A stretch of DNA of 64,000 bases from an uncultured Armatimonadetes bacterium (GTDB lineage Bacteria > Armatimonadota > UBA5829): positions 1,923,298 to 1,987,297 of the forward strand of contig CAVQDB010000005.1 in the NCBI GenBank assembly GCA_963711155.1, given 5' to 3'. Below are positions 1,574 to 61,975 of the stretch, piece by piece; within the stretch, counting starts at the first letter, position 1; each line of letters starts with the position of its first letter. The translations under genes and the position numbers were made by a program. The notes under the pieces were generated by a model. The model worked only from the letters and a program-made list of their open reading frames with translations, searched no databases and had not been told where the DNA came from.

Positions 1574-3088
1574 CGTTTTTTCCGCTTCTCGGTGCGGCGG
1601 CAATAATGTTCATCCCAAAGGAGAAGCCGGCGGCGATCAAGGCGGCGGCGATCGCGATCAGCCTGGTGCCGCTCGCGATGTCGGTCTGGCTGTGGTTCGC
1701 GTACAGCGCATCCGGCGGGCAGTTTCCCAAGGGCACGCAGTTCGAGAGCATCGCGCAGTGGATACCGGCGCTCGGCGTGACGTTCCACATGGGGGTGGAC
1801 GGCCTGTCCGTGCCGCTGGTGTTTCTCACGACGCTGCTGACCACGCTCAGCTTGATCTACTCGGTGTTCATCGAGACGCGGCCCAAGGAATACTTCTGGA
1901 TGTTTCTGCGTGCTCGAGACGGGGATGCTCGGGGTGTTCACGGCGCTGGACTTCGTGCTGTTCTTCGTGTTCTGGGAGGTGTCGCTGGTGCCGATGTATT
2001 TCCTGATCGGCATCTGGGGCGGCCCGCGCAGGGAATACGCGGCGATCAAGTTCTTCCTGTACACCATGGTCGCGAGTATGGCGATGCTGCTTGCGATCCT
2101 GGCGATGTACTTCTCGCCGGAGGTCCTGCGAATCACCGGCGGCCACCGCACGTTCGATATGATGGTCATCGCGCAGGCGCTGCCTTATGCAAAGAACGTG
2201 ATCGTGGGCGCGCTGGTGTTCTGGGGACTGTTCTTCGGGTTTGCGGTCAAGGTGCCGATGTTCCCGTTCCATACATGGCTGCCCGACGCCCACGTCGAGG
2301 CGCCGACGGCCGGCTCCGTGATACTTGCCGGCGTCTTGCTGAAGATGGGGACCTACGGGTTCATGCGAGTCCTGATGCCGATGATGCCGGTGCAGTTCGC
2401 GAGGTACTGGTTGATCATCGCCATCGTCTCGATTATCGCGATCATCTACGGCGCGTTCGTTGCGATGGCGCAGACCGACCTCAAGAAGCTGATCGCATAC
2501 TCGTCCGTGAACCACATGGGCTACGTGACGCTGGGCTGCGCGGTGGCGGGAGCGGCGGGCTATGGCATCCACATGAGCCATTCCGCGCGGACGCTTGCGC
2601 TGAACGGCGCGCAGATGCAGGTATTCAGCCACGGGCTTATCACGGGCGCATTGTTCTTCCTTGTGGGCGTTGTATATGAGCGCGCTCACACGCGCAATCT
2701 CGCCGATTTCGGCGGGCTTGGCGCGAGGGTGCCGGTATACGCGGGGATGCTGGCGTTTTGCAGCTTCGGCTCGCTGGGGCTGCCGGGTATGACGGGGTTC
2801 ATCGCGGAGCTTTCCGTGCTGACGGGCACATATAACGCGAGCGCGCTGCTTACAGGGCTGGCGTTGATAGGGATCGTGGTGACGGCGGCGTATATGCTTT
2901 GGATGCTGCAGCGGGTGCTGCTCGGCCCGCTGAACCCGAAATGGGACAAGATGCCGGACGCCAACGGCCGCGAGATCCTGAGCCTCGCGCCGCTGATGAC
3001 GCTGATGCTGCTGTTCGGCGTCTACCCCGGCCCGGTGTGGACGTTCTTTACGAACGCGTCGAATGCTATACTAGGAGTGATCCACTGA
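1543..3088 (+). CDS. nuoM: NADH-quinone oxidoreductase subunit M, split by one frameshift as assembled
   Basis: The first ~120 aa (MGSAYILPILTFFPLLGA...KEYFWMFL) lie in the ORF 1543 frame. The rest (LETGMLGVFTALDFVLFFVFWEVSLVPMYFLIGIWGG...) lies in the ORF 1910..3088 frame. One extra base near 1909. The start overlaps the nuoL stop. Confidence 0.85.
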
Positions 3089-3114
3089 TGATTTACGCCG
3101 TTCAACTTGCACAG

Positions 3115-3177
3115 CACGTCGTGCTGAACTTGATTCAGCATCCACGCCTGGGCCCTGAATCAAGTTCAGGGTGACGT
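3115..3177. repeat. REP-like double hairpin (CTGAAC..GTTCAG family), copy 1
   Basis: cacgtc-gTGCTGAActtgatTCAGCAtccacgcctgggcCCTGAAtcaagtTCAGGgt-gacgtg. Two hairpins are bracketed by inverted cacgtc/gacgtg. The architecture matches 27640..27701. Confidence 0.7.
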
Positions 3178-3228
3178 GATACAACTCACTGAGCGCAAAT
3201 CACTTAGCCTACGAAGCGGAGGCAGATC

Positions 3229-3531
3229 ATGAGGCGATTTCATCTGGATATATCGCTCGATAGTGTTGCAGAGATCGCAAAGAGATATCCTGTGAAGGAG
3301 CTTGCTCTGTTCGGATCCGTGCTGCGCGACGATTTCACGCCGGATAGCGACGTAGATGTATTGGTCGAGTTCGAGCCGGATGCTACGATCGGCTTTCTTG
3401 GCATGGCCGCATTGGCGCGCGAACTCTCCGCCGTCACCGGACGACAGGTCGATCTAGTTCCCAAAGCGGGGCTGAAACCCAGGATCAGGAAGCCGATACT
3501 CGACAGCGCACAGGTGATCTATGCGAGATGA
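3229..3531 (+). CDS. mntA: MNT-type nucleotidyltransferase antitoxin
   Basis: LFGSVLRDDFTPDSDVDVLVEF is the minimal pol-beta NTase signature. About 100 aa. It overlaps the downstream HEPN gene by 11 nt. Confidence 0.8.
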   Translation: MRRFHLDISLDSVAEIAKRYPVKELALFGSVLRDDFTPDSDVDVLVEFEPDATIGFLGMAALARELSAVTGRQVDLVPKAGLKPRIRKPILDSAQVIYAR

Positions 3532-12409: not shown

Positions 12410-12492
12410 TTACGAGTTACGAAATACGGAAATACGAATCCGGGAGACGGTTGCAGCAACCTTGTTTCGTATTTCGTAATTCGTAATTCGTC
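12409..12492. terminator. TACGAAW heptamer-word hairpin between convergent stop codons
   Basis: gttacgagttacgaaatacggaaatacgaa, 26-nt loop, tttcgtatttcgtaattcgtaattcgt. It fills the gap between the stops at 12407-09 (+) and 12491-93 (-) exactly. Confidence 0.6.
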
Positions 12493-28739: not shown

Positions 28740-28817
28740 GTTACGAAATACGAACTACGAAATACGAATTGGGAAGCGTGCGTCCTCATTCGTATTTCGT
28801 ATTTCGTAACTCGTAAC
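28740..28817. terminator. TACGAAW heptamer-word hairpin after pta
   Basis: gttacgaaatacgaactacgaaatacgaat, 18-nt loop, attcgtatttcgtatttcgtaactcgtaac. It begins 1 nt after the pta stop. Confidence 0.65.
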
Positions 28818-59794: not shown

Positions 59795-60340
59795 TTACCT
59801 CTTCGCGCCCGCTTTCTTCAGCAGCCGGACGACTTCTCGTTGGTCATCTGCCTTGGCGGCCGCCAGCGCTGTGAGCCCATCATCAGCCTCTGCGTTGACA
59901 TCTGCCCCGTGCTCGATCAGCACTTGCACTATCTCGGTACGCCCAGCCGACGCAGCCAGGACGATGGCGGGATAGGCATCGACGGTCGCGTTTGGGCTTG
60001 CGCCGCGCGCCAGCAGAGACCTCACCTCACTGACATCGCCGTGGCTTGCTGCACGGGCCAACGGCTTGTCCAGAAACAGCTCCTTGCCCGTGGCGAGACC
60101 GAGAAACAGGGCCAGCGCCAGCCAGGCGGCAATCCCAAGGTTGCGCGCGATCCGCGCAGGGCGGCCCCACTTGCGCACAGCAAACCACCCGGCCACCAGC
60201 CACGCTGCCAGCGCCGCCGCCCAGAACACCGCCAGAGCCATCAGACCAAAGGGCACCATCCCGTCCATTCTCGATCCCTTTCTCTCGCGCTTTCGCCCTT
60301 TCGCGATCTCGCGAGTACAGCCCTTCACAAACTCCCTCAT
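59795..60340 (-). CDS. membrane-anchored ankyrin-repeat protein
   Basis: Two TM segments, then [18 protein letters not shown]...[18 protein letters not shown]...TALAAA. Its ATG overlaps the trmFO stop (ATGA). Confidence 0.7.
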
Positions 60341-60619
60341 CGCCTTCTCGCCCGCTCGATCTTGAGTTCCTTGCGCATCTTCTTCGGGTGCTTCCCGGCG
60401 ATCTCCGGCAGGATGCCGAAGTTGGAGTTCATCGGCTGGAAGTCCTTGATGGGGCAGTTCGCAACGTAGTCGCAGAGCGCACCGATCATGGTCTCCTTCG
60501 GCGGAACCACCGGCTCCTCCCCCATCGCCACCCGCGCCGCGTTGATCCCCGCGATGATCCCCGACGCCGCCGACTCCATGTAGCCCTCCACGCCCACAAG
60601 CTGCCCCGCGAAGAACAGC

Positions 60620-60846
60620 AAACTCCCCCCCGCTGCGCCGCCGGGCACATCACTACTCCCCCCCGAGGCGGGGGGCTGGGGGGGGTCGGAACATCCGGCC
60701 CCGTGCACAGCAAACTCCCCGCCGCGGGCTGGGGGGGGTCGGAACATCCGGCCCTGTGCACAGCAAACTCCCCCCCGCTGCGGGGGGGCTGGGGGGGTCG
60801 GCTAGGATTGTTCGGGCGGGATCTGCAATCCCGCCCGAACAACCAG
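60620..60846. repeat. G/C-homopolymer-rich tandem repeat plus 14-bp hairpin inserted in trmFO
   Basis: Units begin with cagcaaactcccc at 60616, 60708 and 60761 (92, 53 and a truncated ~45 nt). Core is ...ggggggtcggaacatccggccYgtgca. The hairpin is ttgttcgggcggga / tcccgcccgaacaa at 60808-60842. Confidence 0.75.
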
Positions 60847-61451
60847 CGCCGCCGTCAGCACATTCGGCGAATCGATATACGTATTGCGATGCACCGCCCC
60901 GTATCGCACGAACTCGGCCCGCTCCAGCCCCGGAATCATCCGAAACACCCGATCCTGCTCCGACGGCCTAAGCTGCGTCTGGAACCCGACCAGCCCGTAG
61001 ACGCTCCCCTCCGCATTCTCCTGCCGCAAGCTGCACGACCGCATAGGGCCGCCGCCCGTCCTCGGATCACTGAGTCCCACCGGCTTCATCGTGCCATACG
61101 CCAGCGTATCCCGCCCCCTTCGCGCGATCACCTCCACCGGCAGGCACCCCTCGAAATACCGCGCGTCGCGCTCCTCCTCCAGGTGCAGGTGCGCGATCTT
61201 CGCCTCCAGCAGCGCATCGACAAACGCCTCATACTCCTCGCGCGTCATCGGGCAGTTCAGATACGCCGGCTCACCCTTGTCATACCGCGACTGCCTGAAC
61301 ACCTTCCCCATATCGATCGACTCCGCCTCGACCGACGGCGCAATCGCATCGAAGAAGTGCAGATGCTTCGCCCCCGTCAGCTCAGCAATGGTCTCGCACA
61401 TCGCCCCCGAAGTCAGCGGCCCCGTCGCCACGACACACGGCCTATTGCCGA

Positions 61452-61500
61452 CATCTCCCTTCCCTTCATTCGTAGTTCGTAATTCGGTAATTGCGTAATG
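61452..61500. repeat. TACGAAT-word / GAAGGGA-type repeat arm inserted in trmFO
   Basis: Plus strand catctcccttcccttcattcgtagttcgtaattcggtaattgcgtaatg. On the coding strand it reads ITQLPNYELRMKGREM between EITRI and RPCVVATGPLTS. Confidence 0.7.
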
Positions 61501-61975
61501 CGGGTGATCTCGCCCCGCACCACCTCGATCATCGGATGTGACTCGATGCCCTCCGTCACAAGCCCCGCAAAGGCCTCTCTGTCCACGCACAGGGCGTCTC
61601 CGCCCGGCACCGCGGCTCCTTGGGCACACTCCAGCGTAATCGATCCCAGCGCGCGCATTTCCTCCTTGAGCAGCCCGTGCGCGGTCGATGGCGAATCAGA
61701 CTTGAGCGACGACGAGCACACAAGCTCGGCAAGCTTGCCCGTTCGATGCGCCGGCGTCATCACGGCCGGCCTCATCTCATACAGCCGCACGCGAACCCCG
61801 CGCCGCGCCACCTGCATCGCCGCCTCGCATCCCGCCAATCCGCCGCCTATCACAATCACTCCGTCCACCATCTCTCGCATTATATCAAAAAACCGCCGGT
61901 CCGCCGGAACAAACCCCACCGCTCAGTCGTATACTACATAAAGCACTTTATAGACCAAAGTTTTCGAGGTGGAAC

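Follow-up and report, generated by a model that had tools for sequence, protein, structure and literature searches.

The gene trmFO, which encodes the folate- and flavin adenine dinucleotide (FAD)-dependent methyltransferase of tRNA uridine 54, lies in a 64,000-nucleotide stretch (here called the window) of contig CAVQDB010000005.1 from an uncultured Armatimonadetes bacterium, whose genome (assembly GCA_963711155.1) is denoted G000. Short repeats that are found elsewhere in the genome have landed in its coding sequence at two loops. At the first (site 1) there is an array of 7-nt words. At the second (site 2) there is a hairpin resembling repetitive extragenic palindromic (REP) sequences, followed by hairpin units built on runs of C and G (the C7/G7 unit). 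The C7/G7 unit was later multiplied locally into three tandem copies. As assembled, the gene is broken. From sequence comparison we nevertheless put at about 75% the probability that trmFO is real, intact and working in the cell, and that it encodes a TrmFO carrying two repeat-derived loops. On this reading the inserted segments would be translated and would form disordered loops at the surface, tolerated by the enzyme. The inserts themselves would be neutral or selfish DNA that selection lets through where the frame stays open and the position is permissive. The frame shifts, the TAG codon and the apparent early stop would be errors of an unpolished long-read-type assembly and not mutations. 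The sequences of related genes show that homologous insertions are kept in frame by relatives and that site 2 was hit repeatedly, by different repeat families.

The locus (61871-60337, minus strand) matches the TrmFO model from end to end. The match is distributed over three minus-strand open reading frames (ORFs; 61919-61413, 61629-60802 and 60747-60337), which are collinear on NF003739, the NCBIfam equivalog model of TrmFO (441 positions), and cover its positions 4-128, 129-331 and 335-428. With 295 bits, the middle ORF by itself exceeds the NF003739 cut-off of 262. TIGR00137 is likewise covered collinearly by the three ORFs, as are positions 2-122, 142-350 and 357-390 of Pfam GIDA. The probable start is the ATG at 61871 (MVDGVIVIGGGLAG). 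The FAD-binding GxGxxG motif is present as GGGLAGCEAA, and the C-terminal FAD-domain motif LFFAGQ..GVEGY is also found. Both catalytic-cysteine motifs, ELVCSSSLKS and YFEGCLP, are in place and their cysteines are invariant in the alignment of homologues (C52 and C246 in the numbering of homologue P0001). We take these to be the catalytic Cys53 and Cys226 of the published mechanism of the Bacillus subtilis enzyme. The original prediction that all TrmFO landmarks are present in a gene divided among three ORFs is thus confirmed by the ORF list and by the coverage of NF003739 and GIDA.

A single uninterrupted frame is not found in the assembly; beyond the division into three ORFs there is one TAG, a compensated shift and a shift in the tail. 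Within the compensated double frame shift (~61059-61024) G000 reads GGPMRSCSL, against a conserved RRPYAVVQL in relatives. In the tail the frame changes at ~60350-60340, where relatives continue as ...ERARRAM(R/E)EFV... and G000 as ...ERARRR-stop, with MREFVKG in the next frame. The G000 protein is 78-85% identical to TrmFO from the open genes of relatives.

Insertion 1 is made of TACGAAT-type words and reads ATTACGCA ATTACCGA ATTACGA ACTACGA ATGAAGGGAAGGGAG. Two of the units measure 8 nt in the assembly, and the frame change lies within the array. Both the words and the accompanying frameshift had been predicted from the letters of the window, and the bounds are now placed at 61499-61455. The expectation that the words recur was also correct: the G000 genome has ~100 arrays or clusters of TACGAAT-type words, 45 of them with at least three words, and copies occur in three further regions of the window (near 12466, 28742-28808 and 49425). 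Several of these arrays terminate in GGGAAGGGAG, as does the trmFO copy. They differ in length across the genome and ~20% of their unit spacings differ from 7 nt. We note that G000 also contains 165 perfect arrays of at least three identical 7-nt units, formed from many words (ACTCTCC, AATGGGG, AATTGAC and others); no such array was found in 200 kb of a genome of the same genus (G003).

Insertion 2 (60844-60616) is composite, with the REP-like hairpin first and three C7/G7 hairpin units after it. Its position, the hairpin and the three tandem units agree with the original prediction, except that the RNA fold gives a stem of 18 bp in place of 14 bp. Looser relatives of the hairpin are present elsewhere in the G000 genome, and its palindrome is also translated in three TrmFO homologues (P0018, P0033 and P0037). 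The C7/G7 units follow one another with periods of 53 and 59 nt and each is read in a different frame, so the trmFO frame is kept by total length alone; it is identical on both sides of the insertion, and the predicted TAG is indeed the single stop inside. The C7/G7 array has no counterpart in the nearest relatives of G000 and is therefore regarded as a later addition to site 2. The folding energy of the 251-nt region is -151 kcal/mol (z = -4.7 relative to shuffled sequence). An Rfam search of this region gave no significant family, and a reading of insertion 2 as an intron or ribozyme was dropped. An intein was set aside as well, since the insertion encodes only ~75 residues of low complexity that are modelled as a disordered loop. 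A 29-nt core of the hairpin is present, 100% identical, in an unrelated metagenome contig from activated sludge (L133:2554-2582), where it is apparently intergenic. The match suggests a hairpin family that is mobile among, or common to, organisms of that habitat. Probing metagenomes with the hairpin did not find a second copy of the trmFO of this species. The features are collected in Table 1.

Table 1. Features of the trmFO locus and its neighbour, in window coordinates
Feature	Position	Strand	Evidence or remark
trmFO (folate/FAD-dependent tRNA U54 methyltransferase)	60337..61871	-	NF003739, TIGR00137, Pfam GIDA; three ORFs and a shifted tail
Insertion 1: TACGAAT-type 7-nt word array, then GAAGGGAAGGGAG	61455..61499	-	letters; genome family; in-frame homologues in P0002 and G002
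Compensated double frame shift	61024..61059	-	carries the only 5 conserved-column mismatches
Insertion 2, first part: REP-like GC-rich hairpin, read VVRAGLQIPPEQS	60805..60844	-	RNA fold; palindrome translated in P0018, P0033, P0037
In-frame TAG of trmFO, where hairpin and C/G-run array join	60802..60804	-	sole stop of that frame within insertion 2
Insertion 2, second part: three tandem units, CCGAC(7-8) AG C(6-7) loop G(7) AGTT, with locus-specific linkers	60616..60801	-	
Tail frame change, source of the apparent stop and the ATGA overlap	60337..60350	-	relatives read through
Ankyrin-repeat membrane protein gene	59795..60268	-	Pfam Ank families; probable start ATG 60268 (MDGMVPFGL), not 60340

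The comparison drew on related genomes, among them G001 to G003 of the same genus, and on 120 close TrmFO homologues (P0001 to P0120) from a search of a large protein collection; site 2 could be measured in 117 of the latter. A trmFO match was obtained in 28 of 31 related genomes and in all but two of these it is a single open frame of ~420-500 residues. The collection held no TrmFO protein more than 85% identical to that of G000. A scan of contigs with the TrmFO of G002 returned, among the matches listed, only homologues of ~50% identity. Most relatives show a canonical spacing of 35 residues at site 1 and 26 residues at site 2, that is, empty sites. The open TrmFO of G002 (478 residues) has insertions at both. 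Its site 1 reads SYESLVTNEGEI, encoded by ACGAGTTACGAATCACTAGTTACGAATGAAGGGGAG; its site 2 reads DPPVSPLRKGGRKG... and is encoded by a GAC-C6 ... C6-loop-G6 unit, whose architecture matches that of the G000 unit.

The spacing at site 1 is enlarged in 11 homologues, for example P0002 (NYELRITNEGKGG) and P0020 (DYELRIMNEGKGE). In P0002 the DNA consists of four regular ATTACGA units and ATGAAGGGAAGGGAG, in frame, and is read NYELRITNEGKG. The number and regularity of the units differ among G000, P0002, G002 and P0020. In the tree G000 groups with P0033, P0037 and P0020 (Shimodaira-Hasegawa-like approximate likelihood ratio test 93-94), and all four have the insertion, which may have a single origin in this clade. 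At site 2, which lies between HRNTY and LFFAGQ, 29 of the 117 homologues have an enlarged loop, longer by up to ~62 residues. At least seven unrelated repeat-like peptides occur there: PPxSPLRKGG / PPLSPPNKGG, VSGFERSGNPET, VRAGxQIPP, SPxxGEGRGEG, DVGAGLCAxPxAARRPR, PSAYASEGS...KKPP and QPETCNLQPET. On a tree of 63 tips the pattern at site 2 needs at least 13 gains or losses. The inserts, which the original prediction had expected to lack conservation at the protein level in related TrmFO proteins, are in part conserved, in that YELR(I)TNEGKG at site 1 and VRAG(L/V)QIPP at site 2 are shared in frame. Five homologues also have an enlargement at a third site, which follows HLEEE. A literature search found no paper on repeat insertions in TrmFO.

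Thermus thermophilus TrmFO (PDB 3G5Q, 3G5R and 3G5S) belongs to the same family (phmmer E = 4e-122), is the best Foldseek match and shares the GxGxxG motif and both catalytic-cysteine motifs. It has no loop insertions. Against the solved Thermus structure, the insertions of G002 appear as simple gaps after approximately residues 128, 211 and 327; those at ~128 and 327 are the positions of sites 1 and 2, and the gap at 211 is found in G002 in addition. An AlphaFold model of G002 TrmFO (predicted local distance difference test, pLDDT, 88; predicted template modelling score 0.91) has 3G5R as its best PDB match and places the inserts between conserved elements. The inserts are of lower confidence, with a mean pLDDT of ~85 at site 1, 64-65 at site 2 and 51-58 at the third site. 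A 369-residue model of the C-terminal part of the G000 protein, in which the TAG was taken as a residue, has confident flanks on either side of a structureless segment (224-272) with pLDDT below 50. Both insertion loops thus fall between elements of secondary structure that are conserved in the FAD domain. The idea that the two sites are surface loops is supported as far as the loops are concerned, by the gaps and the low-pLDDT segments; their position at the surface is presumed.

The original prediction also proposed a search for other copies of the G/C-run unit, and these exist. A strict pattern for the C7/G7 unit finds ~20 hairpins at ~11 loci in G000, most of them within a recognisable gene, and the reversed pattern used as control gave 0 matches. 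Each of 30 related genomes has 0-6 matches to the strict pattern, which looser relatives such as the G002 unit escape. The simplest case is alr (G000:C5:1359688-1359725), where one unit adds 11 residues in frame (PERGDGGVGTT) just before KxNxYGHG; the alr of G001 lacks the 11-residue insert and so shows an empty site. Tandem arrays are found in the GAF domain of an HD-GAF-GGDEF gene (five units of period 39 nt; G000:C2:499150-499340), between the two domains of a GT4 glycosyltransferase (~ten units of period 42 nt; G000:C3:1636300-1636760) and in a GH2 glycosidase (four units of period 66 nt; G000:C2:477047-477290). All three periods are multiples of three, unlike those in trmFO. In four genes (alr, the GAF-GGDEF gene, the GH2 gene and one for an AAA ATPase) the unit is read in an open, continuous frame. 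Two more, rdgB and the GT4 gene, contain it as well, and there assembly frame shifts break the ORF around it. The GAF, GT4 and GH2 arrays together amount to ~150 repeat-encoded residues. The spacing of the matches on contig C2 raised the idea of a CRISPR (clustered regularly interspaced short palindromic repeat) array, which was rejected, as the supposed 'spacers' proved to be linkers of identical sequence and the arrays are located within ORFs. Neither terminal inverted repeats nor target-site duplications were recognised by eye at trmFO or at the other C7/G7 loci.

Two features interest us most: a single TrmFO loop has been enlarged again and again, by many repeat families, and the C7/G7 unit appears to be confined to coding sequence. 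A bolder proposal is that the HRNTY-LFFAGQ loop is a targeted, and not just permissive, landing site for several unrelated hairpin families and that the C7/G7 unit is an undescribed selfish element specialised for coding sequence. The specialisation is suggested by the occurrence of the unit almost only in genes, by its frame-keeping tandem arrays and by its absence, or near absence, from sister species. We regard this proposal as doubtful.

Whether the defects of trmFO reflect the assembly or the gene was judged against the level of noise in G000. The assembly comprises 5 contigs and 5.64 Mb, with a marker completeness of 60.6%. We compared ORFs of at least 250 residues from 200 kb of the complete genome G003 with G000. 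Among the 73 orthologues only 27 are intact in G000. Frame changes number 65, which corresponds to 0.71 per kb of coding sequence; in-frame stops inside the alignments occur at 0.25 per kb. The relA/spoT gene (86% identical, 739 residues) has 5 frame changes, and secDF, priA and the gene of a 267-residue ABC ATPase have 3 each. Outside the window, mnmG (gidA; G000:C5:2008019-2009276) is in six frame pieces, a clear marker of the indel noise of this assembly. Genome-wide, most frame-change junctions are distant from long homopolymers, and homopolymer miscalls as the main cause are unsupported. At 5.6 Mb, G000 is almost double the other genomes of its genus (1.9-4.1 Mb) in size.

A conservation test separates noise from decay. 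Of the columns in an alignment of 100 TrmFO homologues, 175 are at least 95% conserved. G000 differs at 5 of these, all within the compensated shift, and the homologues themselves differ on average at 2.7. At the remaining 170 near-invariant columns G000 agrees throughout, including downstream of the TAG. Indels without substitution at 170 constrained sites are the pattern of sequencing error and not that of a pseudogene. The original prediction had left a choice between a dead trmFO and one in which the G7-G8 runs are miscalled and the protein has two large loops. The noise, the lack of decay and the relatives favour the second alternative, but the location of the junctions does not support a specific fault in the G runs. 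On the sequence data we therefore favour general indel and stop noise of the assembly, rather than G7-G8 miscalls, as the source of the defects.

Several observations weigh against an intact gene. The 1.6 kb of trmFO contain a frame change in the heptamer array, the compensated pair, the tail frame change and one stop, more than the ~1.1 frame changes and 0.4 stops expected from the genome average, although the count is within the range of other genes such as relA and the ABC ATPase. The TAG stands as a clean stop where two elements meet and is no obvious indel. The periods at site 2 are not multiples of three, which sets them apart from the tandem arrays inside other genes. For comparison no other assembly of this species was found, and the nearest protein is 85% identical. 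These points bear on the alternative that trmFO is a recently inactivated pseudogene, in which repeat insertion and expansion were followed by indels and a nonsense codon, and that the cell lives without 5-methyluridine at position 54 (m5U54). About five indels (net frame changes being all that is countable) together with one stop are indeed above the rate of 0.71 per kb, and the TAG sits exactly where hairpin and array meet. Model bacteria are known to tolerate the loss of m5U54 enzymes (compare PMC11214086). A check for a TrmA-type gene that could serve as an alternative, proposed in the original prediction, found none in the G000 genome. We nonetheless consider inactivation improbable: the 170 conserved columns outside the shift are free of substitutions even past the TAG, over half of the sampled genes, essential ones included, share such defects, and relatives tolerate insertions in frame.

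The frame change at site 1 could instead be real and reversible, with slippage of 7-nt units acting as an on/off switch akin to phase variation or producing a mixed population. Seven is not a multiple of three and each unit gained or lost would shift the frame by one base. The unit number and regularity do vary at this site, between species, and TACGAAT-type arrays vary in length genome-wide; variation in unit number has been reported for other bacterial heptamer repeats (PMC4692102). The irregularity in G000, however, consists of two 8-nt units and not of a whole unit gained or lost, and the ~20% of irregular spacings in the arrays of G000 is what general noise would give. A switch of this kind is thus very unlikely. 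Ribosome bypassing or readthrough of the TAG, such that the inserts are not translated as written, has precedents in phage T4 gene 60 and the GC-rich 'byp' elements of yeast mitochondria. The inserts are GC-rich hairpins within coding sequence, and the stop codon directly follows a very stable one. Against this, other genes and relatives carry these elements in frame and without interruption, the frame is equal on both sides of insertion 2, no Rfam family is matched, and stops arise by error in this assembly; bypassing or readthrough is hardly plausible. We give equally little credence to an assembly chimera, in which repeat sequence was wrongly spliced into trmFO. In favour of a chimera are the errors of the assembly and the membership of the inserts in repeat families, but homologous insertions are present at the same codons in independently assembled relatives, and both flanks are collinear and contiguous with trmFO.

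[quoted passage not shown] RPEs and in-frame MITEs share with the trmFO repeats that short palindromic families occur in unrelated housekeeping genes with the frame kept, that peptide segments are added at places which the fold allows, and that related genomes have empty sites. The marks of an RPE-like element are found in G000: a multi-copy family, an insertion within an ORF that preserves the frame, and empty sites in relatives. There are also differences. The core of the C7/G7 unit is ~35-40 nt, as opposed to ~100-150 bp for RPEs and MITEs. Unlike RPEs, the C7/G7 units are homopolymer hairpins that expand into tandem arrays, there is no conserved peptide frame across the trmFO units, and the host is a free-living Armatimonadota bacterium rather than a reduced intracellular one.

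The first part of insertion 2 resembles the REP and REPIN hairpins in being a GC-rich hairpin with an 18-bp stem and looser genomic relatives. REPs are by definition extragenic. The trmFO hairpin differs in that it sits inside a gene and is predicted to be translated. For the TACGAAT arrays a comparison can be made with the heptameric simple repeats GGGAATC of Xanthomonas and GGGGAYT of Nostoc (Rehm et al. 2015, PMC4692102). In both cases 7-nt words are scattered over the genome in variable unit number and are mostly extragenic. TACGAAT, unlike the Xanthomonas and Nostoc heptamers, has no G-tract and no quadruplex is expected, and its trmFO copy is intragenic and kept in frame in several species.

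These observations have some practical bearing. Frame shifts alone are no ground for calling a pseudogene, either in trmFO or in the more than half of the sampled genes of this assembly that are affected, and conservation at invariant columns offers a quick means of discriminating sequencing noise from decay. Translated short palindromic repeats in housekeeping genes are known from few cases (Rickettsia, Coxiella and some cyanobacteria), to which a free-living Armatimonadota lineage is now added. The TrmFO loop provides a natural series of insertion variants, of up to ~70 residues, from which the tolerance of an FAD/folate tRNA methyltransferase could be explored. The locus would also permit testing whether intragenic landing sites are chosen by the element or filtered by selection.

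Downstream of trmFO lies the gene of an ankyrin-repeat protein with an N-terminal membrane segment. An ATGA overlap between the two genes had been interpreted as translational coupling and as a sign that the locus is expressed. The overlap is present in the letters, but its ATG is the codon of the conserved Met of the TrmFO tail, ...RAM(R/E)EFV, and the 'coupling' is accordingly another frame error in the tail. The contig of P0020 (L130), a member of the G000 clade, has the order trmFO-Ank-STAS, as in the window. Its ankyrin gene (2951-3352) starts 58 nt after the trmFO stop, at a position that aligns with Met 60268 of G000; the coupling is thus not upheld. In 19 relatives the ~1.5-kb flanks on each side of trmFO contain neither the ankyrin gene nor the upstream membrane gene, and outside the window the P0020 contig alone showed the order trmFO-Ank-STAS. 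As assembled, the shifted frame of the TrmFO tail runs without a stop into the ankyrin ORF (59795-60340).

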